DNA of 64,000 nucleotides from Omnitrophica WOR_2 bacterium GWF2_43_52 (GTDB lineage Bacteria; Omnitrophota; Gorgyraeia; Gygaellales; UBA12090): contig MHGF01000022.1 of NCBI GenBank assembly GCA_001805445.1, positions 74,613 to 138,612 of the forward strand, in the 5' to 3' direction. Within the stretch, counting starts at the first letter, position 1; the number at the start of each line of letters is the position of its first letter. Position numbers and translations under genes: made by a program. Under the pieces are notes generated by a model that did not search any database, was not told the DNA's origin, and worked only from the letters and a program-made list of their open reading frames with translations. Positions 1 to 19,799 of this stretch are shown here, one piece after another.

Positions 1-784
1 AATTATCATCCTGAAGGACGACCACTTTAACCCCGTATTGTTTATGCAGCATCTCCAATTCTTCAATAACCCTTTTTGGGCTTTTGGCGCGCCATTTAAG
101 AAAATCACTCGGGGAGCGCGGGTCATACTGATCCCACTCATAGCAAAAGGTACACGCTGAAGGGCAGCCGCGGGATGAGACCATATCCACAAAGGGCTTC
201 CAATGGGTATGCCCCACATATTTATCCATCGGGAATAAATCATAAGCCGGAAGAGGTAAAGAATCCAAATCCTGCTGTAAGGCTTTATAAGGGCCCATCA
301 CAATTTCCCCATTTATTCTGGAAGTAACTCCTCCCACATTTTTTAAATCTTTCTTTTTTTCTATCGCTTCTAATAAATCATAAAAACACTCTTCCTCACC
401 CATTACCACAAAGTCCGCCGCGGGATTAGCCGCAAGGCTTTCAGTCGGCATTGCCGAATACCACAGGCCGCCGAAGATTATTTTTACCTTAGGGAGCGCC
501 TGCTTTATTTTCTTGGCTGCCTCGTTAAAATACCAGACTACCGCGTAGCCGCCGTAGGAATGAAGCTGTTCGCCCAAAACCACGATATCCGGATTTTTCT
601 CTTTCACTTGGGCGGTCATTTCATCCATAGACAATTCAAAAGCTTTACAATCCAATACCGCAACATCCTTATACCCCTTTTCCCTGACATACGCCGCCCA
701 ATGGGTATACAACTGATTCGGTGCCACATGTTTTCCATGCGTTGCCCAAGCGCCCACTTTAGGCATGACAAATAAAATTTTCAT
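1..784 (-). CDS. B12-binding radical SAM protein (N-terminal ~260 aa; 3' end runs off window start)
   Basis: Reverse-strand translation begins MKILFVMPKVGAWATHGK... (B12-binding-like N-domain) and continues to SSRGCPSACTFC, the CxxxCxxC radical-SAM cluster motif. A GGAGGA RBS lies upstream of the ATG at 784. Not in the ORF track because it is truncated by the window edge. Confidence 0.7.
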   Translation of the reverse strand, partial: MKILFVMPKVGAWATHGKHVAPNQLYTHWAAYVREKGYKDVAVLDCKAFELSMDEMTAQVKEKNPDIVVLGEQLHSYGGYAVVWYFNEAAKKIKQALPKVKIIFGGLWYSAMPTESLAANPAADFVVMGEEECFYDLLEAIEKKKDLKNVGGVTSRINGEIVMGPYKALQQDLDSLPLPAYDLFPMDKYVGHTHWKPFVDMVSSRGCPSACTFCYEWDQYDPRSPSDFLKWRAKSPKRVIEELEMLHKQYGVKVVVLQDDN

Positions 785-858: not shown

Positions 859-2250
859 TTAAAATGATTGAAAAACAATGTCTCCTTTTGCCTTGCTTAA
901 ACCGTGCGCCTCTTCATCAATCTCAACGCCAGCGAAATCATCCTGTTTATCAGGGCCAAAACTATACACAATCCAGCCATTCTCCTTTTTCACATATTTT
1001 AATGGCTTAAAATTGTCAAATGGATCTTCAGGGATTTTCTCAAGATAGGCAGGGACTAATTCTTGTAAATTCTCCAGCATCTTACCTTTTTCTATTTCGT
1101 AGCATCTTACGGCGACAGCCGCAATCAAAAGGTTTAGCCTGCTCACTGAGTTATAATAATAAACTATCTGTCGGTTATAACCAGGCATTGGCATTTGCAC
1201 AAAAAGCCTAGAAATCGTCTTGGCAATGGTTGAGGAAAACATCCATTGAAATAATTTATTCTTAAGAAGATACGGCTGTGTAAAAACGAACCACGAGAAT
1301 GGTGTAAACTTTAATACGCCTGATTGCTCATACCGTTTATTGAAGGCATTATAATTATTTTCTCGAAAAGCTGCGACGAGATAGGGATACCATTCATTAT
1401 CTGATTTATTATATTCTTTATAAATTGCCTGCCGAACCTTTTTGATAAGTTTTATTGGTTTGTCTTTAGCAGATTCTTTTCCCTTGTCAGGAGTAACAGC
1501 TTTTCCCGAGGCCTCTTGTTCCCTTTCGTTTTGTCCAAAATATTCCGAAAGAAAATCCGGAGAATCAAGCAGTCTTATTATAGTATTTCTATGAGCCGTT
1601 CTTTCTTCTTCAAAAGCGTTTTCCAGGGTAATTCTCAATTTATCGCTTTTTAGAGAAAGGAGCATACTAAGTATCGATTGGAAATCTTCGATATTGACGT
1701 TTTCATTTTGTTCAAGGTACCTGTCTATGGCAGAATATAATGGCGTTTCCGTAACCCAAACCGTTGCTTTTGTGAGCAGGATAAATGCTTTTTGTTGCTC
1801 TAAATGTCTGACATAACGCGTAAGCGCAAGATAATTTTCTAAAGCCAAATCGGGCTTATGTTCTTCTTCATACAATTTAGCTTCTAACATCATTAACTTT
1901 GCTATACGCAATTCTTTTAAATGGGAAGGCCCCATTGCAATTAAATCTTTTACCGGCGGCTTACCAAAAGTAAAGTCACAATAGGTGATCTCAGTTGCCT
2001 TCTTAAATCCCTCTATCGCTTCTTTGTTTTGGGCGAGAATAGCTTTTAATCCCTCATTACCCTCTTTCCAGCCATCCTTGATTACCTTATTTATCTCATC
2101 ATGAGGAAAAGATGAAATATCGGAAAATAAAGATGACGCTTGTTGATACATCGTAGCGGCATTTTCTTCAGCATAGCTTGAAGCAATAAATAATATGCTA
2201 GATAGAAAGATAAAAAAACAAGTACATCTTAACCTATTTTTGCTTGGCAT
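859..2250 (-). CDS. secreted hypothetical protein (463 aa) with N-terminal signal peptide
   Basis: ORF track. N-terminus MPSKNRLRCTCFFIFLSSILFIASSYAEE has a hydrophobic core plus an A-x-A-like cleavage region. No recognisable catalytic motif. Sits 3 bp downstream of the KS-like gene. Confidence 0.5.
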   Translation of the reverse strand: MPSKNRLRCTCFFIFLSSILFIASSYAEENAATMYQQASSLFSDISSFPHDEINKVIKDGWKEGNEGLKAILAQNKEAIEGFKKATEITYCDFTFGKPPVKDLIAMGPSHLKELRIAKLMMLEAKLYEEEHKPDLALENYLALTRYVRHLEQQKAFILLTKATVWVTETPLYSAIDRYLEQNENVNIEDFQSILSMLLSLKSDKLRITLENAFEEERTAHRNTIIRLLDSPDFLSEYFGQNEREQEASGKAVTPDKGKESAKDKPIKLIKKVRQAIYKEYNKSDNEWYPYLVAAFRENNYNAFNKRYEQSGVLKFTPFSWFVFTQPYLLKNKLFQWMFSSTIAKTISRLFVQMPMPGYNRQIVYYYNSVSRLNLLIAAVAVRCYEIEKGKMLENLQELVPAYLEKIPEDPFDNFKPLKYVKKENGWIVYSFGPDKQDDFAGVEIDEEAHGLSKAKGDIVFQSF

Positions 2251-2253
2251 TTA

Positions 2254-3483
2254 CTATTCTTTCTCCACTACCAGCGCTGAGTTTATTCCTCCTCTGCCGC
2301 GGGAAATCACCAGAGCCTTATTTATCTTATGCTCTTTGGCTTCTTTTTTGATATAGTTTAGGCCGTTATTTGCCGGCTCATCCAAGTTTATGGTTGGGGG
2401 AACTAAATTATGCTCCATGCTCAGAATTGTGGTAATCATATCTACCGCCCCTGATGCGCCCAACAAATTACCGAACATTGACTTAGGGCAGCTGGTGGGA
2501 AGAGTCTTTGCCTTAGCGCCAAAGACCTGCTTTATAGCACTCACTTCGCCCAAATCCCAATCATCGCAAGCCATACCGTCTAAACTAATATAATCTATTT
2601 TTTCCGGAGAAACCTTGGCATCATCCAAAGCCATTTGAATTGCCCGGGCTAATTCCTTACCGTCAGTCGCCGGATTAATCCTGTCTTTTGCGTCGCAGGT
2701 TGTGCCATATCCGGAAATCACCGCCTGGATATTTGCCTTACGAGCCTTGGCGCGTTCAATATTTTCTAGCGTTACAATCCCCGCGCCTTCGCCAATCACA
2801 CAACCGTCGCGTTTTTTGTCAAATGGCCGATACGCGCTTTGGGGATTATCATTATTTTTGGATAAACAGCCGTAGGTATTACAACACAAAAGGGCGTAGG
2901 GAGTAACCGGCGCTTCCATTCCTCCGGCAAGAATCAAATTCAACTTATCCTTACCCAAAGTCTTACTGGCATAACCTAAAGCCATCAAAGAGCTGGCCCG
3001 GTCAGAAACTACGGTTTTACTAAAACCCTTGATACCGTAATAAATGGAAACCTGGCCTTGGGGAGCCGCGGGAAACCAAGCGCTGGCCATATACGGTGAA
3101 ACCCCTGAGCGTCCTTCCAAATATAAATCCCGCAATTCCGTTTCCGCGTAAAGCCAGCCGCCAATGGCATTGCCTAAAAATATCCCCACCAAATTGGGGT
3201 CTTCTTTTTGAATGTCAAGGCCGGCATCCTGCAGGCTCATTTCCGAGGCAATCAATGCCATATGCGAAAAGGCATCCATCTTTTTTAAGAGGCGCTCGGA
3301 GACATGCGTATAAGCATCCAAATCATCAATCTGCCCGGCAATGTGCGACGAATAATCCTTGGCGTCAAAACGGGTGATAGGCTTAATGAAACTTCTTCCT
3401 GCCTTAATATTCGCCCAGAACTGGCGCTTGCCGATGCCGCTGGGGGCAACAATCCCAATTCCTGTAACTGCTATTTTACGCAT
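2254..3483 (-). CDS. beta-ketoacyl synthase family protein lacking the Cys-His-His catalytic triad (chain-length-factor-like KS partner)
   Basis: Thiolase-fold KAS I/II-like over its full length (GIGIVAPSG...PFDKKRDGCVIGEGAG...). Aligned to the adjacent KAS, the active-site TGCTAG is replaced by SDRASS (Cys to Arg), ISAHGSS by ISLDGMA (His to Asp) and IGHPLAA by FGNLLGA (His to Asn). An RBS, GGAGAGGG, lies upstream. Confidence 0.75.
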   Translation of the reverse strand: MRKIAVTGIGIVAPSGIGKRQFWANIKAGRSFIKPITRFDAKDYSSHIAGQIDDLDAYTHVSERLLKKMDAFSHMALIASEMSLQDAGLDIQKEDPNLVGIFLGNAIGGWLYAETELRDLYLEGRSGVSPYMASAWFPAAPQGQVSIYYGIKGFSKTVVSDRASSLMALGYASKTLGKDKLNLILAGGMEAPVTPYALLCCNTYGCLSKNNDNPQSAYRPFDKKRDGCVIGEGAGIVTLENIERAKARKANIQAVISGYGTTCDAKDRINPATDGKELARAIQMALDDAKVSPEKIDYISLDGMACDDWDLGEVSAIKQVFGAKAKTLPTSCPKSMFGNLLGASGAVDMITTILSMEHNLVPPTINLDEPANNGLNYIKKEAKEHKINKALVISRGRGGINSALVVEKE

Positions 3484-3571
3484 TCCCTCTCCATTAAAAA
3501 ATAATGCTTCGTGTGCCGTGTACCGCTCACCGTGTACCGTTACGGTGAACGGTACACGGTAAACGCAACAA
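3484..3571 (-). terminator. strong hairpin (ccgtgtaccg...cggtacacgg) followed on the minus strand by TTATTTTTT, between the two KS genes; terminator or attenuator-like
   Basis: Inverted repeat CCGTGTACCGTT/AACGGTACACGG seen directly. The minus-strand reading gives a stem-loop followed by a T-rich tract. Confidence 0.4.
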
Positions 3572-4831
3572 TCATTCCATTCTTTTTAACACTAGTGATG
3601 AATGTATCCCGGAAAAACCGCTTGAGGTTTTGATAATCATATTTACCTTTTTCTGCCGGGCAGTATTAGGGATATAATCCAGGTCGCATAATGGATCTTT
3701 TTCTTCCTGATTTATCGTAGGAGGTAAAATGTTCTTCTGAAAAATCATGGCGCAGACACTTAGCTCAACGGCATTGGCTGCCGCCAAAGGATGCCCAATC
3801 ATAGACTTAAGCGAACTCATCGGCAGTTTATACGCATAATCCCCAAAGACCATTTTGTAAGCGCTGGTTTCAAAAATATCGTTCATCCGGGTGGATGAGC
3901 CGTGGGCGCTGATATAATCTATATCCCGCGGCTTTACCGCGGCATCCTTAAGGGCTAAATTGATACAACTTGCCATTGCCGTGCCGTCTGCGGGAAGGTC
4001 AGTCATATGAAAGGCGTTGCAACTGGTGCCAAATCCGATGACTTCACAATAAATATGGGCGTTTCGTTTAAGCGCATGATTTAATTCCTCTAAAATTAAA
4101 ATCCCCGCGCCTTCGGAAAGCACAAACCCATCGCGTTTTTTATCAAACGGCCGCGATGCCTTTTCCGGAAAATCGTTACGCACGGACAATACATTCACCA
4201 CATCAAACGCCCCAAAGGTAATCGGCGTAAGGGGCGCTTCGGCAGCTCCGGCTATCATAATATCCGCTTCTCCATCCTGAATCGTCTCTAAGCAAAAACC
4301 TAAAGAATCCGTGCCGGCGGTGCATCCGGTTGAAATGGTATTACAAAGGCCATTCAACCCATATCGGGCGGAAAGCTCAATTGACGGAGTATTAAACATC
4401 GCGGCATCATAGAGGTCAGGGCGGACTAATTTTGGATTGATGGGATTTTTGCCGTTATCGGTAACTAAAGAAAACTCCTCCTCCATATATTTTGTCCCGC
4501 AGATAGCATTGGCTAATGACACACCTACTCTTTCTGTATCTTCTTTACTAAAATCCAAACCGCTATCTTTAATAGCCATATCCCCTGCCACTACCCCAAA
4601 CTGCACATATCTATCCATGCGCACCGCCTCATCATGGGTAAGCCCAAGTTTAAACGGGTCAAAATCCCTCACCTCAGCGGCAATCCGGGTATTAAACACC
4701 GAAACATCAAAATCATCCACCAGCCTCACCGCAGATTTTCCGTTAATCATGGCATTATAGACATTATCTTTACCAATGCCGTTAGGCGAAATCACGCCGA
4801 TTCCTGTTATCACTACGCGTCTTTTTTGCAT
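3572..4831 (-). CDS. 3-oxoacyl-ACP synthase II-like ketosynthase (FabF family), catalytically intact
   Basis: 419 aa. Motifs VITGIGVISPNG, active-site Cys in NTISTGCTAGTDS, His in ISAHGSS and IGHPLAA, and PFDKKRDGFVLSEGAG. Confidence 0.85.
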   Translation of the reverse strand: MQKRRVVITGIGVISPNGIGKDNVYNAMINGKSAVRLVDDFDVSVFNTRIAAEVRDFDPFKLGLTHDEAVRMDRYVQFGVVAGDMAIKDSGLDFSKEDTERVGVSLANAICGTKYMEEEFSLVTDNGKNPINPKLVRPDLYDAAMFNTPSIELSARYGLNGLCNTISTGCTAGTDSLGFCLETIQDGEADIMIAGAAEAPLTPITFGAFDVVNVLSVRNDFPEKASRPFDKKRDGFVLSEGAGILILEELNHALKRNAHIYCEVIGFGTSCNAFHMTDLPADGTAMASCINLALKDAAVKPRDIDYISAHGSSTRMNDIFETSAYKMVFGDYAYKLPMSSLKSMIGHPLAAANAVELSVCAMIFQKNILPPTINQEEKDPLCDLDYIPNTARQKKVNMIIKTSSGFSGIHSSLVLKRME

Positions 4832-4846: not shown

Positions 4847-5485
4847 CTAACAACCACAGGGCGGTGGGACTTTATTTTTAGAAACCACATCTTTATTTTC
4901 CGCTTCGCCTGTCCGCGTCACTTTAAATACTATATGGCCGCCGTCTGGACAAGTTACCGTATCTATAGAATCGGGGTCCTTCATAAAGAAAAACTTAGCC
5001 CCGAAATTAAGGGCAAATAATGCCGGAAACATCGTATGGAATGCCGCGCCGCAAAAATTAGGAATAGTCTCTAAACCTTTGGTTTCCCATTTCTGGCCTA
5101 AAACATACTTATAGGCGCAATGGCCCTCAGATTTAACGACTTCAACAGCCATCTTTTTTGGTTTTGGGCCTTTCCAATTTTGGTCTTTAGGTATAAACTC
5201 AACCTTACCATCCTTATCCAAAACCTCGGCCTTAAATTCTAACTTTCCTCCGTCAGGACAAGTGGTCAATAACGAGCGCTGGTTTTCCATAAAAGGAAAC
5301 CGCGCCCCAAAGCTTAAGGCATAGATTACAGGAAAAAGCACCTGGGCTAGGCCTAAACAAAAGTGCTCCGGAGGATGGGTAAAATCTTCTAAAATTAATA
5401 CATCCCCCAATTTATAGTTATGATAACAGTGCCCCCCGACCTTATTGACCGTAAGTTTTAATTTTGGAAACGGCGTCTCTACCAT
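4847..5485 (-). CDS. tandem-repeat Cys/His-rich protein (2 x ~100-aa 'HC..YKLG...TCPDGG' domains)
   Basis: 212 aa. Two internal repeats each carry a GHC.[HY].YKLG motif, an F/LFPxxxALxFGA[RK]F motif and a TCPDGG motif, and the protein ends in CGC. May be related to small TIGR04076-like proteins, recalled from memory and not verified. Confidence 0.55.
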   Translation of the reverse strand: MVETPFPKLKLTVNKVGGHCYHNYKLGDVLILEDFTHPPEHFCLGLAQVLFPVIYALSFGARFPFMENQRSLLTTCPDGGKLEFKAEVLDKDGKVEFIPKDQNWKGPKPKKMAVEVVKSEGHCAYKYVLGQKWETKGLETIPNFCGAAFHTMFPALFALNFGAKFFFMKDPDSIDTVTCPDGGHIVFKVTRTGEAENKDVVSKNKVPPPCGC

Positions 5486-5533: not shown

Positions 5534-6532
5534 TTATAATCCTTTTGTTTTTTCTATGAGCTCTTTTACATCTAAAAAGCGCTTACTTTTCTCTACCGTA
5601 TGCACAAGCTCAACTAATTTTCCATTGAGTTTGGCGCAGATACTGTGCTCTTTTGCCAAAGCTACAAACGCGCCATTAATATAATCAATTTCCGAAAGGC
5701 GATTTCTTTTAATGCTCTGAAGTATTGAGCCATACAAAGGCTCTTTGCTTAAATTCATCATAATACCGGAAAATATCTTCGCCGACTCATCCAAGGGCAA
5801 TGCCGCTAATTTTTCCAGGCGTTCCAAAGGGAAATCCGGCAAAGAAACAAGCTTTATTCCTACCTTTGTAATAATAGCCAGCCCCTCTTGCCAAATACGC
5901 ATACTCAGCTTGCAAAGCTCTGAATTGCTAAAAGTTTCTTGCATGCTTTTACCAATAAGCGCGGGCAAACAATTATTGGCATTGACAAAAACCTTAAGCC
6001 ACTTCATTCCTGCAATATCATCAGTTGTAATAACAGGAAAAATTTTATTTAAAAAAACGGCAATTTCTTCTGCCTTTGTATCATTCTTCATAAACGGCCT
6101 GCCGATAATCCATTTCCCCTCAAAATTATGCACGATTTTATTTAAGCCTAAATAGGTTGAGCCAAACATCACGATGCTTGAGATAATCTTTTCTTCAGAA
6201 AAATATTTGGCTAAAATTTTATCCGCCTGTATGCCGTTTTGAGTGGTTAAAATTATCGTATTCTTTAAATACGCTAAATTTTCTTTTATAACCTTTTCAA
6301 TATCCTGTGTCTTTACGGTAAGAATGGCAAGATCAACTTTTTTCCCTAATTTTGGGACAATATCAATTTTTATTTTCAAGTCGCCGCGCGTGCCGGAGAT
6401 TTCGAAGCCGTTTTTGCTGATAGCCTCAACTGCCTCCTTGCGGCCGACTAAAAAAACATCCTCCCCTCTATGCTTAAGGTAGCCCGCAACCAAACCACCA
6501 ATTGCCCCTGGGCCTATGACTGCTATTTTCAT
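5534..6532 (-). CDS. 2-dehydropantoate 2-reductase family (ApbA/PanE-like) NAD(P)-dependent oxidoreductase
   Basis: 332 aa. N-terminal Rossmann motif MKIAVIGPGAIGG and overall ApbA/PanE-family architecture. The KS/CLF context suggests a ketoreductase role, which is inference. Confidence 0.7.
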   Translation of the reverse strand: MKIAVIGPGAIGGLVAGYLKHRGEDVFLVGRKEAVEAISKNGFEISGTRGDLKIKIDIVPKLGKKVDLAILTVKTQDIEKVIKENLAYLKNTIILTTQNGIQADKILAKYFSEEKIISSIVMFGSTYLGLNKIVHNFEGKWIIGRPFMKNDTKAEEIAVFLNKIFPVITTDDIAGMKWLKVFVNANNCLPALIGKSMQETFSNSELCKLSMRIWQEGLAIITKVGIKLVSLPDFPLERLEKLAALPLDESAKIFSGIMMNLSKEPLYGSILQSIKRNRLSEIDYINGAFVALAKEHSICAKLNGKLVELVHTVEKSKRFLDVKELIEKTKGL

Positions 6533-6552: not shown

Positions 6553-6650
6553 GAATTACCACGAATTTTTATCGAATTTACACAAATTAAATCTATATTT
6601 TATTCGTGGCCTTTCGGCTTCTTATTCGTGTGAATTCGTGTTTCTCGGAA
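6553..6650. repeat. MITE-like intergenic element with multiple ACACGAATT/AATTCGTG(T) half-sites in both orientations
   Basis: The sequence cacgaattaccacgaattt...ttattcgtgg...ttattcgtgtgaattcgtgttt belongs to the same family as elements at 17493, 22961, 29925, 36700, 37722, 41383 and 50218. Confidence 0.6.
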
Positions 6651-6897
6651 AGCCATACTTCCTATAATCAAACCCTACATCTTCCAAAAGGCGAATCATC
6701 AGGCTATAAAAAGGTTTAGGTACATCGCTAAAAAGCGCGGCAATAACATCTTGTTCTTCAACCTGGCGTACGGCGCGCGCTTTTGCATTTTCCTGAGCCT
6801 TAAGCGTTACCGCTTCTTCGGCAATACGCCGGTGAAACACCGGCATCTTAGCAACCATTAACTTAAATTTTTCTTGTGTCTTTATATTCCACTCCAT
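6622..6897 (-). CDS. small PCP_red-like domain protein (similar to the BchB/ChlB C-terminal 'protochlorophyllide reductase 57 kD' domain)
   Basis: 91 aa. The pattern W..K.QEKF...VAKMPVFHRRIAEEAV...A..AV..V...DVIAALF resembles the stand-alone PCP_red domain. Pattern match from memory. Confidence 0.4.
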   Translation of the reverse strand: MEWNIKTQEKFKLMVAKMPVFHRRIAEEAVTLKAQENAKARAVRQVEEQDVIAALFSDVPKPFYSLMIRLLEDVGFDYRKYGFPRNTNSHE

Positions 6898-6918: not shown

Positions 6919-6975
6919 AATAGTCGATAGCCTATAGTCGATTGTCCGCAGTAAGATCTATAGCTTATCGATTAT
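6919..6975. repeat. ATAGTCGATAG-type repeat element (aatagtcgatagcctatagtcgattg...ctatagcttatcgatta)
   Basis: Shares the ATAGTCGATAG/CTATAG motif with 25998-26032 and with an in-frame segment of mnmE at 45667-45696. Confidence 0.55.
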
Positions 6976-8516
6976 TAACTGTCGACCGCTTTCAGCTTTT
7001 CCTTTTGTATCTTCCCACTTGGGGTCTTGGGTAAGGTATCTCTGATTTCTACATTATGGGGAACCTTAAAATGCGCTAAATGCTCCCGGCAAAAAGAGCG
7101 GATATCTTCGGTGGTTGCCTCAACACCTTGCTTAAAGACCACAAACGCTTTGACGATTTCACCCCGCAGTTTATCCGGTATACCCACTACCGCCGCTTCT
7201 TGCACTGACGGGTGTTTTAAAAGCACGTTTTCCACTTCAAAAGAGTAAACAATCTCACCGGAAACTTTAATCATATCCTTTTTACGGCCTACTATATAAA
7301 GGAAACCTTCCTCATCAAATCTTCCTAAATCACCAGTGTGAAACCAGCCGTTTTTAATTACCTCTGAGGTAGTTTCTGGGTCCTTATAGTAGCCTTCCAT
7401 CACCACCCAGCCTTTAATAATAATCTCCCCTACCTCACCTTTCGGTAATTCCGTATCATCGTCAGCGGCTATTTTTACCTCAACCCATGGCGCTGGCTTT
7501 CCTATACTTTCAATTTTTTTTGAACCAAGAGGAATGACGGTGTTCGGCGGGCAGGTCTCAGTAAGCCCCCAGCCGTTTAAAAGATGCGCCTTAGGACAAT
7601 ACTGCTGGAATCGCCTCAAGGAATGAGGATCGCTCGGCGCCCCAAACACCACCACCCAGCGTAAGCTGGATAAATCAAAACTCTCAAACTCCTTTAAGTT
7701 TAAAATGGCATAATACATTGAAGGCACTAAATGAAAACAGGTGACTTTATATTTCTGGATATTCCTTAAGAATTCTAAAGGTTGAAAACGCTCCATCAAT
7801 ACAAGAGTAATTCCGTAGCAAATACAATTCTGGATATAAACAAGCCCGCCTGAATGGGACAAAGGAAGCGCGGAAAGTTTTACATCCTTATCCGTTAAAT
7901 CCACAAAATACTCCATAGCCTTTGGCGAACCGTCAAGATGCTTATAATTAAGCGAAATTCCTTTGGGCGAGCCGGTTGTGCCGGAAGTATACATAATAAG
8001 CGCGGGGTCTGTATCTTCTACTTTTATATCGGTAGGAAACGGCCTTGCAGAGGCTACCATATCCGTAAAAGAGCGAAAGCCGCTCTTCTGCGGCTCTAAA
8101 ACAATTACATGGGCTAAGCTGGAGGCTCGGTTTTTCAGGCTTTCAAGTGAAAGCCGCTCTTTTTCCTTAGCAATTAAAGCCTTGGCTTCACAATGGCTTA
8201 AACAGCTCGCCAGTTCATCCTCGGTAAGCATGTAATCCAGAGGAACAATGGTAGCGCCTATAGAAAATAGGGCCAAATAGCTATAGATATATTCAGGGCA
8301 ATTAGGTAAGTAAATGGCAACCTTGTCTGATTTCTTTATGCCTAAGCTAAGCAGACCATTGGCGAGCTTAAAGACATTATCATAGAGCTCTAAGAAGCTA
8401 ATCGGCTTGTCTCTTCCCGATAAATCGGGATCCCGACTCTTTTGTCGGGAAAAGATTATGGCCGGCTTGGAATGGAATTTCTTGGTAGTATCAATTAAGA
8501 CTTGGGCGACATTCAT
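6975..8516 (-). CDS. AMP-dependent synthetase/ligase (acyl-CoA or acyl-ACP ligase)
   Basis: 513 aa. Adenylation P-loop YTSGTTGSPKG, plus GWGLTE and a lysine near the C-terminus (PKTPSGKIQK). Confidence 0.85.
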   Translation of the reverse strand: MNVAQVLIDTTKKFHSKPAIIFSRQKSRDPDLSGRDKPISFLELYDNVFKLANGLLSLGIKKSDKVAIYLPNCPEYIYSYLALFSIGATIVPLDYMLTEDELASCLSHCEAKALIAKEKERLSLESLKNRASSLAHVIVLEPQKSGFRSFTDMVASARPFPTDIKVEDTDPALIMYTSGTTGSPKGISLNYKHLDGSPKAMEYFVDLTDKDVKLSALPLSHSGGLVYIQNCICYGITLVLMERFQPLEFLRNIQKYKVTCFHLVPSMYYAILNLKEFESFDLSSLRWVVVFGAPSDPHSLRRFQQYCPKAHLLNGWGLTETCPPNTVIPLGSKKIESIGKPAPWVEVKIAADDDTELPKGEVGEIIIKGWVVMEGYYKDPETTSEVIKNGWFHTGDLGRFDEEGFLYIVGRKKDMIKVSGEIVYSFEVENVLLKHPSVQEAAVVGIPDKLRGEIVKAFVVFKQGVEATTEDIRSFCREHLAHFKVPHNVEIRDTLPKTPSGKIQKEKLKAVDS

Positions 8517-8798
8517 TTGATGTACTCACTAACAATGGGATCCCACAGTTAAAGGCGGATAATCGCTACGAAGCCCTCCCGTCGTTTGCATGTTCAGGGC
8601 GAAGCAGGATAGTAAAATTTTACTATTTAACTTTTCTTAATTATAAGAGGCATAAAACCTATTGTCAATAATTATTTTGCGAAGGTTTCTATGATGAGGT
8701 AATTGCTGGAAAATGGATCTGGATTCCCCGGTTAAGCCGAAGAATAACAGAATACCCAAATTTACTGTTACCGGTTACAATTAAGGCGGGATTATGAT

Positions 8799-9092
8799 CT
8801 ACGGATGTGGGGTTATGGCAGCGACACTTATTTGATTCTTTCGCGGCCCATAATACCAAAATATACGATACGCGCCAGGAGTAGAAGCTTGAGCATATGC
8901 CTCAAAAACTTTTTCTCCATGCGGCCCTTTAAGGCTTGTGAATTCATGCGTATTTAAACTCGGATGGCGAAGGTTGTGCTGCATCAGGGCTAGAGTTTTT
9001 TTGACTGCCTTCTCAATCTTCCTGCGAGAACGATCGTTTTCAAGCGCGGTTAACTGTTCTTGCGCCGTATCCGTAAGAACAATTTCATTCAT
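8799..9092 (-). CDS. type II toxin, RelE/ParE superfamily
   Basis: 97 aa. The C-terminus ...YRIFWYYGPRKNQISVAAITPHP is typical of RelE/ParE-fold toxins. The 8-nt overlap with the upstream antitoxin gene is typical of TA operons. Confidence 0.6.
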   Translation of the reverse strand: MNEIVLTDTAQEQLTALENDRSRRKIEKAVKKTLALMQHNLRHPSLNTHEFTSLKGPHGEKVFEAYAQASTPGAYRIFWYYGPRKNQISVAAITPHP

Positions 9093-9369
9093 TATCTTGC
9101 AAATGTTTAGACATATCCGGTAATTTATGCTTGGGTTTTTCGCTTAAACCACGCTTAACGCTGGATAAGGCCGCGGCATTCTTATAAAGCCACGCTTCAT
9201 GTTCTGGAACAGCCACCATAGGCTCAAGGACAATCTTGCCGGCGATTATTTCAGCATTATAAAGAGTAACCTTTAATTTTCCTGCCTTTATAATTTTACC
9301 TAATGGAATACGTTTGCGTTCATCTAACGACAATAACATGGGGAACTCCTCCTTTTTCGCTCGCTCCAT
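9085..9369 (-). CDS. AbrB/MazE/SpoVT-family antitoxin
   Basis: 94 aa. The looped-hinge-helix-like segment IPLGKIIKAGKLKVTLYNAEIIAGKIVLEP. The gene sits immediately upstream of the toxin and overlaps it. Confidence 0.55.
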   Translation of the reverse strand: MERAKKEEFPMLLSLDERKRIPLGKIIKAGKLKVTLYNAEIIAGKIVLEPMVAVPEHEAWLYKNAAALSSVKRGLSEKPKHKLPDMSKHLQDNE

Positions 9370-9427: not shown

Positions 9428-12400
9428 TTATACTTTATCCGATTCCAGGGCAATAAGCAATCCCTTTAGGGAGGGTTCGGTGGCAGGCAATTTTTCATCC
9501 TCTTCCTCGCGCCGAAGGATATCGGCAAGCATAGCGCGAACCTGGTCTATTCTCTCTTCAGAGAGCGGACTGGCCACAGCTGCTGCCGTGTATTCGCCAA
9601 TGCGCTGGACAGACGGCCGGATCCCGGCGTTAAAGACAGCTTGAATTTGAGACCATTCTTTATCCAAATCCGACTTAGGGGTTATAGACAGCGGCCTAGA
9701 GACTAAAGACTGGAGACTTTGAATTTGCTGGGTTTGGATAGGTAGGGCGGCAAAATCGATGCCACCCTTGTCATCGCTGACTGATGAGGAGCTTGTTGAA
9801 TCCAAACTAATCTTATATACACCACCTTCATCAGAATAAATAATCACGGTTGATTCATTAATTACTTCTATCTTTTCTGGAATAATTGACAAACATGGCC
9901 AAACATTCAGGCTATTACTCGCAAAACGAATTGGCTTACCAACATAGGCAGAGGTCATAGGATCCCATAATTCTCCTTTGAGCTTTGTATTCGGCCTTAC
10001 TCCTTTTAATTCTTCTTTCTTCCAAAAAGTATTATTTTCGTCACTTCCACCGACTAATTCTAACGTGACTTTTGCATCCTCTTTAAATTTCTCGAAAACT
10101 TCTTCCTTAGATACGTTTCCTTTCTCTGGTTCCAACAAATAATTATATTGCTTACCAAAAAACAGCACGTTTCCTAAATGCTTAGCCACCTCGGCGAACC
10201 TGCCTAAAGAAGGCTTACAGGCACGTGCAGAATTAAAAAGATATTCTGCCCCTGCCACTGCTACTGCCTCTTTGGGTGTAGTTTTCCAATATTGCGTATA
10301 TCTTTTCAAGGCAACATTTGCATCTTGATATTTAGAATCGTTCTTCAATTCTTCATAACTATCTTCGCCCACGTAACACACCAGCCTTCCGCCATCTTCT
10401 CGATACACCCAATCTCCGTAATTAAAATCGCGAATCTCAGTATAATTCCCTTTTAACTCTCTTTTCAGCTCATCTAATGTCTTCAACTTGCCATTATGAA
10501 ACGCGCCGTAAAACCCAGCTTTGCGGGTAATCTCAATCCACGCATCAAAAGACACTATCGGATTGCTATTCTTATCGCTTGAAAGTGATATTTTATGCAT
10601 AATCTCATGCCAAAATGTTTTGGCCAAGTCTATGAAATTATTCTCATTCCGGACACCATTGATAAATATCGTATGGACTGTTTTTTGGCCAACCCACCCC
10701 CCAGCATTAACATCCAGCTCCGCAAAATCTATTTTTATGGGTATTTTTATCTTTCCCAGCAAATCTTTCGGAAACGATCCTAATATCTTTCTTACGTCTC
10801 CAAAACGTGATGGTGCCACATAAGAGAGAAATTCTATGTTTAATCCTTCCCTTATATCTCGCACTAACAAGAGATAACCCTCAAGGTCTTTTATGGTTTG
10901 CGAGTTATCAATTTTTCTCATACTGCCTAATTCAGACAATATCCTGCTTAACTTCTGAGAATCAATCCGACCGGACGTCTCAAATAGACCCTGTTCATTC
11001 TCTATATATAAATGCACCAGTTCTACCACATATTCATTAAATTCCGACCCTTTACTTTTAAGTATTTTCCCTAACAACTCTTTAGGGGACATCTTCTTTA
11101 TAGCCACTGCTTCCAAAAAATAAGTTTCCTTTATATGTTTAAGGAAAGACACATAATCTCTTAGACCAACCAACGCTACCAGCCTTTTCCTTTCCTTTCT
11201 TATTTCAGCTTCCGGCAATTCTGTATTTATCTGAACAATTACGTTATTTAACACATCCAGATTTATCTCATCGCTTTCCTTATTATCCTTCTGCTTAAGA
11301 TACTTAGCGATGTATTCTTTTATACCGTCATTCAGCCTTCCGGCACCTATATTCTTTTTTATAATCCATTTCACAAAATCTTCAAGAGATAACTCCCTTA
11401 ATTTTTCTGGTGAAGCTGCATATTTATCAAAATCGTGCTTTTCAAAACCTGCATTTCCCACCGCCGAGCTGGCGGAGGAACCATCTATAGGCAAATTAAT
11501 AATTTGTTTCCTTTCTACAGCTGAACTTACAGATAATAATTTACCTATTCCCCTATTATCTCTAACATTAGACAAATTAATCGCGCTTGTTTCATTAGGC
11601 ATAGTAAATGTTTCTTCTGTCATTACGTTAGTTAATGTAGCTGGCTTATAGTTATACTCAGCCATTACAAATTCTTCTCCGTCATGCCAATCTATAAAAA
11701 TCTTAGTCCCTTCATAACCCTCAGGCATATCACCAGTAAAACCAATCCAGAGATCTCTTTTTGTTTTTAGATTCTGGGCATAAAGAACATTCTCACCAGG
11801 GTCATATAGATATTTAAAATTCTCTTTATCCTTATCTTCACACACTTTCAGCTTGAAGGTGGCATGGGTTATAGGGTTAGTAACTTCTATTGTTCCATCG
11901 GCTCGCAATTCACTAAGTAGCCCCTGCCGCATTCTTAGTAAATGCTGCTCTCGCTCCTTCACTGTTTTTTCTTCTCCACCGGTGTCCTCAGAATAAAACG
12001 AGCAACCTCGAAAAATAGTGCGAAAAGGAGTTATATCTATGCCAGCCTCTATAAATTCTTTTTTCAACTCTGCTATAAACTGTGTGAGAAGAAAAGGAGA
12101 ATTTCTATACCTTGAAAAATATTCCTGCCGATGGTCTTTTCGAGCCGCGTCTGTAGAAGGATAGATAATGTCCCACAACAACTTCGTCTGAGGCTTAGTC
12201 GAATGATCGTTATCCTTAATTTCAAGGCTGTCATGAATTATTCTAAACAAAAATCTTTGTAATTCTGAAACCTTCAAGTCACTTGAAAGTAATCGGTCGC
12301 TATTAATGTCTTCTATCACTTTCTTAATATCACTCATTGTAATTGTGTTACCCCATTCCAGCTTTACGTCTGCGGAATCCTCTACCGCCGAGCTGGCGGG

Positions 12401-15400
12401 GGCAGGAGCACCTGTAGATTCATCTTGAAGCGGCACACCCCATAAATTAAGCACCTTTTCTATATCTCGAATATATTCTTCACCAATCTCTTTTTTAGGA
12501 TCGAGTTTAATCCGATCCTTTATTTTCTCTATTTGATCCCTCCAAGCCTTTATACGTGTTTCTAACTCGCCTATTTCAGAAGCAAATTTAAGTTCTTCTT
12601 CTAATATTCTCGGATGGGCATGTTGAAAAAAAAAGTTAAAGTCAGAATCAATAGCCCCTCTTTCTACAAATTTTTGCTCAAGTAATTCATGTAAAAATAC
12701 AGATTTTGTAGGAGAAATGCCTAATTCCTGACAAAACGCATGATAAGCCGCGGGAGAATAATATATGCCCTCCTTCTGGACAGACGGATGAAACATCCAT
12801 ACAATGGATGGTATGGATTCTGGGGCCATATATCTTGTAGCTTTTTCAATTTCATCCCATACTTTGCCTGCGCCACCCGCTAATTCCCTAACTCTTTTGA
12901 TCAATTCCGCAGATGCCCTATCCAACATAAACATCGTAATTCCTATTTTTACCTTAAAAACTCCAATTTCTTCTATAAATTTTTCAAGAGTCATTTTCCT
13001 AATTTTATCCTTGGAACCTATTTTGTTTTCAAGATATTCTGCGGTATCCTTCACCGCAGAATCTATTACATTGGAATCGGGTTTAGCCTTAGGCTGATTA
13101 TGAGCGCTGGCCATCTCCATTTGACTCACTACCTCTGCGATATTACGACTCTTTAAAGCACCCCAGATGTTTTTAGCGTCCAAATTATCTTTACTACCGT
13201 TTGCCAAAGTTACCAGAGACAGCTCCTTAGGCTCTGGATTCCGTCCAAAAAAGCTCATCAAAGAAGAAGAAGCTACTTTTTCTTTTTCACTTATTTCTTC
13301 CACCGCCGAGCTAGGCACATTATTATATGATTTTTCGCTATTGATACTATTTGTTCGATTTAAACCAACCCTTCTTACCATATCGTCTTCGGTAGGTAAC
13401 CTTTTTCCATGAACCCAAAGGGTAAGTCCTGGGTTCTTCTCTGTTATCTCCTTTAGTGCCGACTGATAATCCGGAACAAACATTTTGGCTGTCCAGCCTT
13501 CATAACCATATCCGCCAAAATAATCCAGATTAGTTACTTCTACTTTTTCTGAACTCTTTTTTACAAATATCAATTTTTTAGAATACTCGGCAAAAACTTT
13601 CTCTGCCTGATCCCTGAGAAATTCAGGGACTAAAATATAGTCTATATCTTCAAAACTGACTTCCTGAACACTCCAAGCTAAAGCACCACTTTTACCCGTA
13701 AGCAAGCCTATATCTTTCTTCTTAATAGTGTCAAATTGAGAGACAAAGAGAACAGAATGCATAACCCGCTCCTCCATCATTTCAGATAGAAGGCCATATC
13801 CATGAAGCAAACGTAAATCTTCCCCGTATCTTTCTGTAACAACTGGTAATACCGCATTGCCGTCGCGTCCATTATATAATGCGTCATAGGAAGTATTCAT
13901 AAATCCATTTCTTATTCCTTCTTTAGCCAATTCCTCTACATCTTCCAAAGATAATCCGGGGAGTCTATAGCTCTTATATATTTCCCCTGTTTGCTTAATG
14001 ATTACATTCCATGTCGTGCCATCATCTCCTTTCTCTAATGACAATGTAGGATTGATTATGACCCCATAAACTATAGGTGCTGGCGTTCGCGAGGATAGCG
14101 ACGTATCAACACGCAAACCTCCTCTTTTAATTTGCTCAAGTTGATAAACAATCTCGTCTCCGACCCGTTTCGAAATAAAAAATCCTAATTGCCTGCCTAA
14201 TGCCTTTGGAGATGACAACATACTCAAATCTACAGATAGAAGATAACTCAAAGATTGACCGCTGTGCCCGGTAACAGGATTGAATCTATCCATAATTATT
14301 CTATTTACCCTATATTCCCAATTATTAGCTGGAGATGTAAATTGAGAAACCGCCTTATCAATAAATATTGCCAGATTTTCTTTTCCTGCCCACTGAGCAT
14401 AATCTTTAAAAAGCTCTTCTAAATAGCTTAATCCTGCCACATCATTATTTTCTGTCCGCATAAATCTAACAACATCCTCTCCAGAGGTGCCAATACCAGC
14501 TGCCTTTCCTATGATTGTTGCTACACCATATTTGTTCAACGCTTCTGCAAATATTTTATAAGACTGCTCAATAATTGAAGATGAAGCTCTATCAGTTGCA
14601 AAGGACTCTATTAAAAATTTAGTTCTCGGAGGACTAATTGTCTTAGCAGGAATCTTAGAGATTGCGCTGCTAACTTGTTCCGTTCCAAACATCATCCCCC
14701 CGCTCATATACTTGCGGATACTCTGGCCCATAGGAGTATATATCGGCTCAGTGAGGTTGTATTCGCCATCTTGGAATGATTTCTGGTATTGCTGGAAGTA
14801 ATCTTGCTTGTCATACAGTTCTTTAGAAACCAAATTAGTCAAAGCCCCGGAATCTATGAGCTTGAAGTAATCATTGGCTTTTTCTGTCCTCTGTTCCCTG
14901 TTCTCTGTCATCTGCGAGCGAAAGCGAGCTTTAAACCACTGCGCCAAGATGAGCGAATAATACACCTGCCGAAGAGAAGCGTATCTCTTTGAGGTATTCA
15001 CCTGATAGGTAAGCTTAGGGATTACCAATTCTCTGATAAGCTGGGTAGAATATTCATTGAGCTCCTTTAGCCTTGGATCTTTGAAACTATAATTTATTAT
15101 CGTCCCTCGTCCTTCATCCTTCATCCCTCGTAAATAATCCTCCTCCAGCATCACTTTTAGGGTTGCTTTGTATATGTACGCATTATCAGGGGCTTCTCTG
15201 ATGATTATCTCATTGGGCACTATCCAGGGGCGGGTTAAGGTGGGTATGGTAATATTCTCCGTTCCAAATAATTCTTCTGCTTTCTTATAGAGTTTATCCC
15301 AGTAAACTTTTCCTTCAGGGTCTTGGGGTGAAGTAAAGTTTGCGGTGTCCTTCTTTAGCTGGACATCTGCTTCTAAGAATATCCTGCCGATATCAGTCAT

Positions 15401-15868
15401 TGCTACGTCATCATCTATGATGTTATCCGGTGAATCCGGCCTTAGGTTTACCCAGAATTTATCATTAGGCAGGCTTAAGCCGATAAAGAAGTATTTCAAT
15501 AGCTCTTTGGTAGCATTATTGAGCTCATTAGCTGGTGAGCTGGTTAGCTCATTAGCTAAATGGTTATCAAATTTAGTATCTCCTTTGTCTAACAATAGCT
15601 GAAAGTCATTGCTTTGGCTATCGTAGGAGATGTACCTTAGATGTAAGGGACGGAATTTGTCTTGGGGGATAACCGCATTACGGGCTTGGTTAAAGTAACC
15701 AGAAATATCCAGAGTCTGGGCTACTTGGGCAAAGCTGGTTTGCTCAAAGATAAGGCAGAAACAAAAGAAAAAATGGGCTATGCGCCCGCCACACTGCCTT
15801 GGCGGGCGTCCGCCTATGCTTTGTGGTGGACGTTGTGCGTTATGAGTCATGTCGAATACGATAGGCAA
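9428..15868 (-). CDS. giant multidomain protein A (2146 aa) of unknown function, sharing N- and C-terminal modules with the 26062-29616 paralog
   Basis: Single uninterrupted ORF. The first ~430 aa are ~85% identical to paralog B. The C-terminal ~100 aa (GGIDFAALPI...TEPSLKGLLIALESD) resemble the B C-terminus. An internal HExxH motif (FWHEIMHKISL) is present. The SSAVE linker motif recurs four times. The N-terminus has a long charged region before a hydrophobic stretch, IAHFFFCFCLIF. Confidence 0.8.
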   Translation of the reverse strand: MPIVFDMTHNAQRPPQSIGGRPPRQCGGRIAHFFFCFCLIFEQTSFAQVAQTLDISGYFNQARNAVIPQDKFRPLHLRYISYDSQSNDFQLLLDKGDTKFDNHLANELTSSPANELNNATKELLKYFFIGLSLPNDKFWVNLRPDSPDNIIDDDVAMTDIGRIFLEADVQLKKDTANFTSPQDPEGKVYWDKLYKKAEELFGTENITIPTLTRPWIVPNEIIIREAPDNAYIYKATLKVMLEEDYLRGMKDEGRGTIINYSFKDPRLKELNEYSTQLIRELVIPKLTYQVNTSKRYASLRQVYYSLILAQWFKARFRSQMTENREQRTEKANDYFKLIDSGALTNLVSKELYDKQDYFQQYQKSFQDGEYNLTEPIYTPMGQSIRKYMSGGMMFGTEQVSSAISKIPAKTISPPRTKFLIESFATDRASSSIIEQSYKIFAEALNKYGVATIIGKAAGIGTSGEDVVRFMRTENNDVAGLSYLEELFKDYAQWAGKENLAIFIDKAVSQFTSPANNWEYRVNRIIMDRFNPVTGHSGQSLSYLLSVDLSMLSSPKALGRQLGFFISKRVGDEIVYQLEQIKRGGLRVDTSLSSRTPAPIVYGVIINPTLSLEKGDDGTTWNVIIKQTGEIYKSYRLPGLSLEDVEELAKEGIRNGFMNTSYDALYNGRDGNAVLPVVTERYGEDLRLLHGYGLLSEMMEERVMHSVLFVSQFDTIKKKDIGLLTGKSGALAWSVQEVSFEDIDYILVPEFLRDQAEKVFAEYSKKLIFVKKSSEKVEVTNLDYFGGYGYEGWTAKMFVPDYQSALKEITEKNPGLTLWVHGKRLPTEDDMVRRVGLNRTNSINSEKSYNNVPSSAVEEISEKEKVASSSLMSFFGRNPEPKELSLVTLANGSKDNLDAKNIWGALKSRNIAEVVSQMEMASAHNQPKAKPDSNVIDSAVKDTAEYLENKIGSKDKIRKMTLEKFIEEIGVFKVKIGITMFMLDRASAELIKRVRELAGGAGKVWDEIEKATRYMAPESIPSIVWMFHPSVQKEGIYYSPAAYHAFCQELGISPTKSVFLHELLEQKFVERGAIDSDFNFFFQHAHPRILEEELKFASEIGELETRIKAWRDQIEKIKDRIKLDPKKEIGEEYIRDIEKVLNLWGVPLQDESTGAPAPASSAVEDSADVKLEWGNTITMSDIKKVIEDINSDRLLSSDLKVSELQRFLFRIIHDSLEIKDNDHSTKPQTKLLWDIIYPSTDAARKDHRQEYFSRYRNSPFLLTQFIAELKKEFIEAGIDITPFRTIFRGCSFYSEDTGGEEKTVKEREQHLLRMRQGLLSELRADGTIEVTNPITHATFKLKVCEDKDKENFKYLYDPGENVLYAQNLKTKRDLWIGFTGDMPEGYEGTKIFIDWHDGEEFVMAEYNYKPATLTNVMTEETFTMPNETSAINLSNVRDNRGIGKLLSVSSAVERKQIINLPIDGSSASSAVGNAGFEKHDFDKYAASPEKLRELSLEDFVKWIIKKNIGAGRLNDGIKEYIAKYLKQKDNKESDEINLDVLNNVIVQINTELPEAEIRKERKRLVALVGLRDYVSFLKHIKETYFLEAVAIKKMSPKELLGKILKSKGSEFNEYVVELVHLYIENEQGLFETSGRIDSQKLSRILSELGSMRKIDNSQTIKDLEGYLLLVRDIREGLNIEFLSYVAPSRFGDVRKILGSFPKDLLGKIKIPIKIDFAELDVNAGGWVGQKTVHTIFINGVRNENNFIDLAKTFWHEIMHKISLSSDKNSNPIVSFDAWIEITRKAGFYGAFHNGKLKTLDELKRELKGNYTEIRDFNYGDWVYREDGGRLVCYVGEDSYEELKNDSKYQDANVALKRYTQYWKTTPKEAVAVAGAEYLFNSARACKPSLGRFAEVAKHLGNVLFFGKQYNYLLEPEKGNVSKEEVFEKFKEDAKVTLELVGGSDENNTFWKKEELKGVRPNTKLKGELWDPMTSAYVGKPIRFASNSLNVWPCLSIIPEKIEVINESTVIIYSDEGGVYKISLDSTSSSSVSDDKGGIDFAALPIQTQQIQSLQSLVSRPLSITPKSDLDKEWSQIQAVFNAGIRPSVQRIGEYTAAAVASPLSEERIDQVRAMLADILRREEEDEKLPATEPSLKGLLIALESDKV

Positions 15869-16168: not shown

Positions 16169-16528
16169 ATGTTATTAAATAGTTACAGCTATGCCCTACT
16201 TTTTTTGGCCGCGGGCACAGTCTTTGTCTTGGCCGCGTTTGTCACCTCATGGATTTTAAGGCCAAGCAAGCCAACCAAAGAAAAAATTACCCCCTACGAA
16301 TGCGGGGAATTTACTACAGGGACAAGCTTTGTCCAATACAATGTCCGCTACTATATTTTCGCCCTGATTTTCGTGGTTTTCGATGTGGAAGTGGCATTTT
16401 TACTCCCCTGGGCGGTTATTTTTAAAGACTGCGGGGCATGGGCATTCTTAGAGGCCGCGGTATTTATCTTTATCTTATTGGTAGGGCTGTTTTACGCTTT
16501 AAAGAAGAAGGCATTAGAATGGGTCTAA
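16169..16528 (+). CDS. nuoA: NADH-quinone oxidoreductase subunit A
   Basis: 119 aa with three TM helices. Conserved YECGE and FDVE motifs. Confidence 0.9.
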
Positions 16529-17037: not shown

Positions 17038-17038
17038 C

Positions 17039-17482: not shown

Positions 17483-17492
17483 TTAGTGCTGA

Positions 17493-17572: not shown

Positions 17573-17605
17573 ACCTTTTTTAGTGGAAACTATTTAAAAC
17601 ACTCT

Positions 17606-18760: not shown

Positions 18761-18765
18761 CCGTA

Positions 18766-18816: not shown

Positions 18817-18825
18817 TAACATAAA

Positions 18826-19797: not shown

Positions 19798-19799
19798 CG

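Follow-up and report, generated by a model that had tools for sequence, protein, structure and literature searches.

Ketosynthase (KS) enzymes bring a Cys and two His side chains together in one pocket, as in KAS II structures. Of the components of type II polyketide synthases (PKSs), the chain-length factors (CLFs, or KSbeta subunits) are understood least, and a role of their hallmark glutamine in starter-unit decarboxylation is debated. This is the role usually given for the residue (PMC6638757), and one CLF, AntE, has Asp at its position (PMC6638757). The minimal PKS operon of the pyxidicycline cluster suffices to make anthraquinones (PMC5982219). In anammox bacteria, amxFabF2 and amxFabFmut form a pair of an active and a dead FabF-like protein that co-purifies and crystallises as a KS/CLF-like heterodimer, the interface region of amxFabFmut being disordered without the partner (bioRxiv 10.64898/2026.05.19.726425). 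A profile hidden Markov model catalogue of 2023 (PMC10132072) lists KS-CLF pairs from Candidatus Omnitrophica in a "previously unexplored non-actinobacterial clade"; Omnitrophica is named there in the list of phyla alone, and "active site," "arginine," and "glutamine" do not occur in its text. Here, we analyze the open reading frame (ORF) at positions 2254 to 3483 of a 64,000-nucleotide stretch of contig MHGF01000022.1 from Omnitrophica WOR_2 bacterium GWF2_43_52 (positions 74,613 to 138,612; the whole stretch is called the window below), which encodes a KS-like protein with all three catalytic residues replaced. Omnitrophota are uncultivated, often ultra-small bacteria. We put the probability that the KS-like protein is the KSbeta (CLF) subunit of a type II PKS at about 0.82. 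The ORF and its closest neighbors are as follows.

2254 to 3483, minus strand: KS-like protein, probable KSbeta/chain-length-factor-type subunit of 409 amino acids (aa) with an ATG start (sequence, alignment, orthologs, motifs, and model)

3484 to 3571, minus strand: intercistronic spacer of 88 nucleotides (nt) with an 18-bp perfect hairpin (free energy, −40.1 kcal/mol; z, −5.6)

3572 to 4831, minus strand: catalytic KSalpha-type ketosynthase of 419 aa, termed KS here, with intact Cys170, His310, and His347 (ORF, Pfam, and BLASTP)

The KS-like protein matched PF00109 (7e-43) and PF02801 (2e-27) end to end in Pfam, and BLASTP aligned it with the adjacent KS at 36% identity over 416 columns (E value of 3e-89). 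The BLASTP alignment reproduced the motif pairings given in an earlier reading of the sequence alone (the sequence-only reading), with TGCTAG of KS opposite SDRASS, ISAHGSS opposite ISLDGMA, and IGHPLAA opposite FGNLLGA. Arg162 (CGG, positions 2998 to 3000) of the KS-like protein stands opposite KS Cys170 (4322 to 4324), Asp302 (2578 to 2580) opposite His310, and Asn339 (2467 to 2469) opposite His347. The same placement was obtained in MAFFT alignments with FabFs and with Streptomyces KSalpha/CLF pairs, and no other register that restored Cys, His, and His was found in any of the BLASTP and MAFFT alignments made. The two independent methods agree on the proposed replacement of all three catalytic residues (Cys to Arg, His to Asp, and His to Asn). 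Further family-conserved residues are Asp161, Lys334, and Arg395; Arg397 is kept in the closest relatives and varies over the wider clade. An AlphaFold2 (AF2) monomer model of the KS-like protein was predicted with a mean predicted local distance difference test (pLDDT) score of 92.7 and a predicted TM score of 0.93. Its TM scores to FabF and to the actinorhodin KS and CLF were all between 0.93 and 0.96, so structure comparison cannot tell a FabF from a KS or a CLF. The least confident stretch of the model, residues about 111 to 140 (block pLDDT, 69 to 81), is the interface helix-loop-helix and corresponds to the region that is disordered in the partnerless anammox subunit. The segment PFDKKRDGCVIGEGAG, which had been highlighted as retained, is present, but it is a motif simply common to all KS-family proteins.

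Loss of the catalytic residues at all three positions, in a gene that a hairpin-bearing spacer parts from KS in this genome, could also mark a decaying pseudogene or a redundant, functionless paralog, an outcome that the sequence-only reading had itself considered. We searched 5.8 billion proteins for the nearest relatives and found the Arg/Asp/Asn (R/D/N) triad to be invariant in 120 of the 120 nearest 90%-identity clusters, which are 78 to 100% identical to the KS-like protein and whose source-named members are Candidatus Omnitrophota metagenome-assembled genomes. The substitutions that were to be looked for in related genomes are therefore not the result of a sequencing accident or of chance. 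A scan of one genome per species detected relatives in at least 183 genomes; the best 80 loci were at least 76% identical and nearly all labelled Omnitrophota. Among 84 fetched loci (80 from Omnitrophota species genomes and 4 from metagenome contigs) and the window, the KS-like protein was full length in 82 orthologs, the remaining three ran into or began at a contig end, and no complete ortholog carried a frameshift or premature stop. Across 72 genomes, the mean pairwise identity was 80% for the KS-like protein versus 83% for the catalytic KS, the median ratio of nonsynonymous to synonymous substitution rates (dN/dS) was 0.050 versus 0.046 (99 usable pairs), and 225 of the 409 columns of the KS-like alignment were at least 95% conserved. 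Given the dN/dS of 0.05, the invariant residues, and the intact orthologs, as well as the encoding of relatives in 183 species-level genomes, the pseudogene explanation is rejected as scarcely credible.

To place the protein in a family, we built a neighbor-joining tree of 34 sequences with 200 bootstraps, comprising three Streptomyces KSalpha/CLF pairs, one Bacillus plasmid pair, and four FabFs (from annotated plasmids), together with pairs from Archangium, from two low-GC metagenomic loci, and from a second Omnitrophota lineage. The dead partners and the Streptomyces CLFs formed one clade in 200 of 200 bootstraps, and the KS partners and Streptomyces KSalpha subunits formed another (94.5%), with FabF outside. 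Deleting five motif regions (94 columns) left the CLF clade at 200 of 200 and the KS clade at 81.5%. In an alignment with Streptomyces CLFs, FabFs, and KSalphas, several motifs were common only to CLFs and the KS-like protein: GG(W/F)x(F/Y)xExELRxL(W/Y), D(Q/R)A(G/S), PK(S/T)MxG, (A/L)DG replacing AHG, and (A/S)RG(R/H)GG replacing FGFGG. At these places, the actinorhodin CLF (PDB 1tqy_B) reads E-Q...D...K...R...RGR. Phylogeny and shared motifs thus make the KS-like protein a CLF homolog; the likeness to CLFs that had been proposed as an analogy holds, but the relation is one of common descent. The change of the first His to Asp is likewise real but not special to this protein, as canonical CLFs carry Asp there too. 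A non-catalytic, CLF-like KS paralog, as the sequence-only reading had it, is supported by the phylogeny, the CLF motifs, the gene order, and a context of acyl carrier protein (ACP), ketoreductase (KR), and cyclase genes, and the protein is an added member of the CLF family, in a non-actinobacterial, Arg-type branch, rather than a new kind of protein.

Compared with the actinorhodin (1TQY) and other Streptomyces systems, the subunits are homologous on both the CLF side (100%) and the KS side (94.5%), the replacement of the first His by Asp and the P-K and R-G-R-G-G motifs are shared, and the Streptomyces genes also run KS then CLF, typically with an overlapping stop and start, with ACP, KR, and aromatase/cyclase genes close by. 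Unlike the KS-like protein, with its Arg and Asn, the Streptomyces CLFs have Gln at the Cys position and Arg at the second-His position; they are about 37 to 39% identical to the KS-like protein, which is more FabF-like overall. AntD/AntE of Photorhabdus (6SMO) form an anthraquinone minimal PKS of the type II class in a Gram-negative bacterium. Among solved proteins, AntD (376 bits) ranks second to the actinorhodin KSalpha in similarity to the window KS, and AntE also lacks the Gln, but has Asp instead of Arg and is too divergent to appear among the listed PDB matches of the KS-like protein.

Several points weigh against the assignment to the CLF family. Against PDB sequences, the KS-like protein alone scored higher with FabF (301 bits) than with the actinorhodin CLF (251 bits), and a family profile kept this order (449 versus 361 bits); because FabFs outrank the actinorhodin CLF, similarity scores alone are ambiguous, and phylogeny and motifs are needed. 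Classifiers whose training set was actinobacterial CLFs would probably assign the protein to the type II fatty acid synthase (FAS) KSs. The textbook Gln is missing, with Arg162 standing where the Streptomyces CLFs, including that of actinorhodin, read (D/E)-Q. The two genes of the window are split by the 88-nt hairpin spacer and do not overlap, and the ACP, KR, and cyclase genes lie past the left edge of the window and are assigned from orthologous loci (among them L005, at 94% identity). The trees are neighbor-joining, not maximum-likelihood, trees of 34 sequences with limited sampling, and long-branch attraction may inflate the grouping of degenerate paralogs, a risk that removal of the motif columns lowers but does not eliminate. 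The Arg-Asp salt bridge considered below is drawn from known KS active-site geometry. As to the classifiers, many non-actinobacterial pairs are classed as "type II FAS" KSs by NaPDoS2 or antiSMASH (PMC10132072), and the FabF-like scores of the KS-like protein fit this labelling of the catalogued non-actinobacterial clade. The Gln hallmark is not universal for working CLFs, as AntE has Asp and a pyxidicycline (pcy)-type CLF of Pyxidicoccus fallax has Arg.

Identity as a housekeeping FabF was rejected by the absence of Cys-His-His (the triad being R/D/N) and by a TIGR03150 score of 387.9 bits, below the equivalog cutoff of 493.75. Ten Arg/Lys-type representatives were also compared with NCBIfam, and none reached any equivalog cutoff or matched a family beyond the FabF-like models; PRK07314, a general model of the FabF subfamily, was passed by P0121 and by no other representative.

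The sequence-only reading had called the Arg at the Cys position unusual. This stands in comparison with actinobacterial CLFs but not within a large non-actinobacterial CLF clade, in which Arg prevails. Relatives were collected in an exhaustive HMMER search of 1.84 billion cluster representatives, in a list ranked by likeness to an Arg-type query and thus biased towards the Arg type. Among the nearest relatives listed, most unfused dead partners have Arg at the Cys position, with the triads RDN, RDH, REH, RAN, RHH, RNH, RDD, and RAS, and a few have Lys, Thr, Ala, Ile, or Met there. A profile search with distant Arg-type members returned 80 RDN, 28 RDH, and 6 REH sequences among others, and 122 of 136 dead partners combined Arg/Lys with Asp/Glu at the first-His position. 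D161, R162, D302, K334, and R395 were at least 90% conserved in 87 sequences with 36 to 94% identity to the query. D/E-R-A-S is the common state in a clade of Omnitrophota, Myxococcota, Bacillus, and two low-GC loci, its Arg-type members including Archangium, Sorangium, Corallococcus, Polyangium, Pyxidicoccus, a Bacillus bombysepticus plasmid, and the two low-GC loci. Each Arg-type locus inspected had an adjoining KSalpha-type gene, ACP, PF04199 cyclase, and SRPBCC or Polyketide_cyc-type protein. The cyclases of the Arg-type loci are 38 to 44% identical to the Omnitrophota cyclase (39% in the Archangium locus, which has its own Polyketide_cyc genes), and the SRPBCC proteins of the Bacillus and low-GC loci are about 39% identical to the Omnitrophota SRPBCC. 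Related dead partners usually have Arg at either the Cys or the second-His position, and a few have it at neither. The replacement of Gln by Arg is a signature of the whole clade, and the pocket Arg appears to have swapped position. A large natural CLF branch thus carries Arg in place of Gln, keeps the neighboring Asp, and now includes Omnitrophota; it offers a comparative test of pocket function through Arg-to-Gln and Asn-to-Arg swaps in either direction. The literature that we searched on Omnitrophota ketosynthases and on Arg-type CLFs held no description of them and no comment on the Arg residue.

The closest match among characterized pathways is a Pyxidicoccus fallax locus (L097) whose genes correspond one by one to pcyA-H and pcyJ-L, both in their order and in their domain families; we equate it with the pyxidicycline cluster on this gene order and these families and not on an accession match. 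The pyxidicycline proteins (PcyE, KSalpha; PcyF, CLF) fall in the same non-actinobacterial KS/CLF clade, the P. fallax CLF reads E-R opposite the catalytic Cys and D opposite the first His, and the KS and CLF are 55% and 39% identical to the window proteins, respectively. PF04199 and Polyketide_cyc cyclases, KR, and ACP are shared as well. If the locus match is accepted, an Arg-type CLF therefore works in a characterized aromatic pathway (PMC5982219). In contrast to the window protein, with its Asn, the P. fallax CLF keeps the second His, and its cluster has a didomain aromatase/cyclase, a phosphopantetheinyl transferase, and serine-incorporating tailoring genes but no B12 radical S-adenosylmethionine (SAM) enzyme, TIGR04076 protein, ApbA-type reductase, or Amidohydro_2 protein; it is also a strain-level secondary-metabolite cluster, unlike the phylum-wide Omnitrophota operon.

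The two low-GC (36%) loci with Arg-type KS/CLF pairs are L087 and L088. In L088 (11285 to 13684 and 20457 to 21248), the CLF gene is directly followed by genes for large B12 radical SAM proteins, one of them fused to an SCP2 domain. Omnitrophota are thus not alone in having KS, CLF, and radical SAM genes next to each other, although identity between the radical SAM proteins is just 24%.

The adjacent KS also matched PF00109 and PF02801 over their full length. Its best matches among PDB sequences were the actinorhodin KSalpha (1tqy_A, 381.6 bits) and AntD (6smo_B, 376.3 bits), and every FabF scored below these (at most 350.7 bits). From sequence, this KS is the predicted heterodimer partner of the KS-like protein. 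Its gene lies upstream and would supply the sole working Cys-His-His site. The KS-like protein keeps the whole thiolase/KS fold, and we infer that it pairs with KS as an obligate heterodimer, in which it would form one side of the dimer interface and close off the acyl tunnel at its distal end, presumably with no condensing activity of its own. The gate residues F109/T112/F116 of the actinorhodin CLF (1tqy_B, offset 8) align with W110/A113/L117, although the rules that relate such residues to chain length are actinobacterial. The vestigial pocket would be filled by a charged cluster of Asp161-Arg162, Asp302, Lys334, and Arg395, forming a salt-bridge plug in which Arg162 probably pairs with Asp302. 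Canonical CLFs read Gln...Asp...Arg at the triad positions versus Arg...Asp...Asn in the KS-like protein, which suggests that the guanidinium group has shifted to the Cys position from that of the second His.

The same charged cluster could instead be a working site, the KS-like protein having been neofunctionalised to bind a carboxylate (malonyl- or starter-ACP) for priming or to act as a cyclisation factor. KS partners that do more than control chain length have precedents: the glutamine of the actinorhodin CLF is described as intrinsic to starter-unit decarboxylation (PMC6638757), and AmcG has been proposed as a "cyclization factor" (PMC10698177). The near invariance of D161, R162, D302, K334, and R395 across phyla (at least 90% in the 87 sequences) and selection as strong as that on the catalytic KS would suit such a site, but a buried, fold-stabilising salt-bridge network predicts equally strong conservation. 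Moreover, both His residues for canonical decarboxylation are gone from the KS-like protein, and canonical CLFs have a similar set of Asp and Arg residues. We consider a working site quite unlikely and favor a CLF with a filled pocket.

How the KS and KS-like genes are joined also bears on their association. In 52 of about 80 loci, the stop codon of KS overlaps the start codon of the KS-like gene by 1 or 8 nt, as is typical of translationally coupled genes; the overlap is 4 or 7 nt in 4 loci, and the genes abut in 6. In the window, the spacer hairpin is followed after 12 nt by a U-run and a GGAG-type ribosome-binding site. Unrelated palindromic inserts were observed at the same junction in 11 genomes (L005, L011, L036, L041, L045, L053, L054, L067, L070, L073, and L083). 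Small palindromic elements may favor this junction as an insertion site, or the inserts may tune subunit stoichiometry. Fusions of a KS, a linker, and a KS-like domain add Rosetta-stone support, at the sequence level, for a physical association of the two proteins, and these fusions belong to a related but different branch. Two such natural single chains were seen, P0122 (869 aa) and P0271 (755 aa, its N terminus cut by the contig end). Each consists of a KSalpha-type domain with Cys-His-His, 43 to 47% identical to the window KS, a linker of about 35 to 40 aa, and a dead partner with Thr at the Cys position. The sole frameshift encountered lies in L013 (9004 to 10300), where the catalytic KS is split over two frames and the KS-like gene is unaffected; the split may stem from an error in the assembly or from a rare inactivation.

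The gene order around the pair is near invariant in the fetched Omnitrophota loci: DUF2621-like protein, ApbA/PanE-type reductase, TIGR04076 protein, KS, KS-like protein, B12 radical SAM enzyme, and ACP, followed by the PF04199 cyclase, an SRPBCC protein (Polyketide_cyc/cyc2), often an MFS protein, a short-chain dehydrogenase/reductase-type KR, a 130-aa protein without assignment, and Amidohydro_2. Beyond Amidohydro_2 lie PNP_UDP_1, IF-2B, a class II aldolase, and an aldehyde dehydrogenase, and accA with a PadR regulator heads the order in many fetched loci. The SRPBCC and cyclase proteins of the orthologous loci exceed the Pfam gathering scores. The members of this operon found in the window, and the features next to them, are as follows.

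2 to 784, minus strand: B12-binding radical SAM enzyme, N-terminal 261 aa (tblastn, 75% to the L003 enzyme; PF02310 and PF04055)

859 to 2250, minus strand: ORF of 463 aa with a hydrophobic N terminus and no Pfam or NCBIfam match (library scans)

4847 to 5485, minus strand: TIGR04076-family protein of 212 aa with two repeats (TIGR04076, 88.7 bits, in 2 stretches)

5534 to 6532, minus strand: ApbA/PanE-family NAD(P)H-dependent oxidoreductase of 332 aa, a conserved operon member (Pfam, NCBIfam, and synteny)

6622 to 6897, minus strand: DUF2621-like small protein of 91 aa, the first conserved gene of the core operon (Pfam and synteny)

6975 to 8516, minus strand: acyl-CoA ligase (AMP-binding) of 513 aa (Pfam and NCBIfam)

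8640 to 8668, minus strand: sigma-70 consensus TTGACA-17-TATAAT with a 12/12 match (consensus match only)

From the genes of the orthologous loci, the operon product is predicted to be a reduced, cyclised, and probably radical-SAM-modified polyketide. In a rival reading, the KS-like protein would be the dead subunit of a ladderane- or fatty-acid-type FabF heterodimer, like that of amxFabF2/amxFabFmut, and the product an unusual membrane lipid. Surveys based on antiSMASH label Omnitrophota clusters as "ladderane" (PMC9902471). As in anammox Cluster I, the KS pair is encoded together with an ACP and a B12 radical SAM enzyme, and both KS and the KS-like protein score near FabF models; phylum-wide conservation and the neighboring accA and 5′-deoxyadenosine-type salvage genes suggest a bulk, primary product. 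Anammox bacteria belong to the PVC superphylum, in which Omnitrophota are usually placed too. However, the anammox cluster lacks cyclases and encodes FabZ as well as a homolog of phytoene desaturase, whereas the Omnitrophota operon is without a FabZ-type dehydratase and a phytoene-desaturase homolog and has a conserved KR and two conserved polyketide-cyclase families that are orthologous to those of aromatic type II PKSs. The radical SAM ortholog scored 70 bits with TIGR04072 (rSAM_ladder_B12; cutoff, 360), fell under every NCBIfam cutoff, and is nearer to BchE and HpnJ. The order of KS then dead subunit is the reverse of that in anammox, where the gene for the dead subunit, which has Val or Thr at the Cys position, precedes that for the active subunit. 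The sequence 9s5h_B, from the PDB entries 9S5H/9S5I that probably represent the anammox heterodimer, scored 296 bits with the window KS, against 382 bits for the actinorhodin KSalpha, and 9s5h_B and 9s5h_C scored 212 and 198 bits, respectively, with the KS-like protein. Cluster content, the TIGR04072 score, gene order, and PDB similarity thus disfavor a ladderane or FAS pair, which we regard as improbable, and a CLF of a type II PKS is preferred. The present labels "beta-ketoacyl-ACP synthase family protein" and "FabF," and "ladderane" for some clusters, are misleading.

In the fetched Omnitrophota loci, the type II PKS operon is conserved, syntenic, strongly constrained, and linked to B12 radical SAM and salvage genes, which hints that its product is physiologically central to Omnitrophota. 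PNP_UDP_1, IF-2B (MtnA-like), the class II aldolase, and the aldehyde dehydrogenase accompany the operon despite their changing position (L001, L003, L004, L086, and most others). This set resembles a salvage route for 5′-deoxyadenosine/methylthioadenosine, and its place beside a radical SAM gene would suggest a high flux through the radical SAM enzyme. A wider proposal, which we find rather unlikely as a whole, is a type II PKS of primary metabolism throughout Omnitrophota, in place of an ordinary secondary-metabolite cluster, whose cyclised polyketide would be essential, for instance as an electron carrier resembling a quinone or as a membrane component. In it, the BchE-like B12 radical SAM enzyme would act on rings of the chain while this is bound to ACP, 5′-deoxyadenosine would be recycled through the flanking PNP/IF-2B/aldolase genes, and the Arg162-Asp302 pocket could be a working CLF pocket that binds a carboxylated starter or the radical SAM partner, not a filled-in relic. 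The operon is a concrete target for heterologous expression.

The remaining features concern single members of the neighborhood. The radical SAM gene is cut by the window edge, which leaves 261 aa of its product. The 463-aa ORF sits between the CLF and radical SAM genes, is absent from all 84 fetched related loci, and is probably outside the pathway. The TIGR04076 protein is present in 78 of 85 loci, directly upstream of KS in the Omnitrophota loci, and has conserved Cys/His positions; its AF2 model (pLDDT, 82.8) gave no fold match in the PDB (best E value of 0.36) and may represent a fold not yet characterised and linked to this PKS. The two papers found to name the TIGR04076 family deal with other organisms. 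Apart from accA, no fab genes were found within the 64-kb window, and an Rfam scan of the window gave no match. The acyl-CoA ligase, a possible starter-unit or ACP-loading enzyme, lies directly upstream of the operon here and in L005, L006, L011, L036, and L068, an arrangement that is not universal. The sigma-70 match, about 125 nt upstream of the ligase start, is a candidate operon promoter and suggests that, in this genome, the ligase gene is the first of the transcription unit; promoter-like sites overall show no excess over shuffled expectation in the region. PadR/accA and the PKS operon, which abut in L003 and L004, are about 29 kb apart in the window (about 6900 to 36200). The intervening block holds the acyl-CoA ligase, a toxin-antitoxin-like pair (8799 to 9369), a 2146-aa ORF without a Pfam match (9428 to 15868), the nuo (complex I) subunits B, D, H, I, J, L, M, and N (16438 to 25998), a 1184-aa ORF, and a resistance-nodulation-division efflux system (30247 to 35711).

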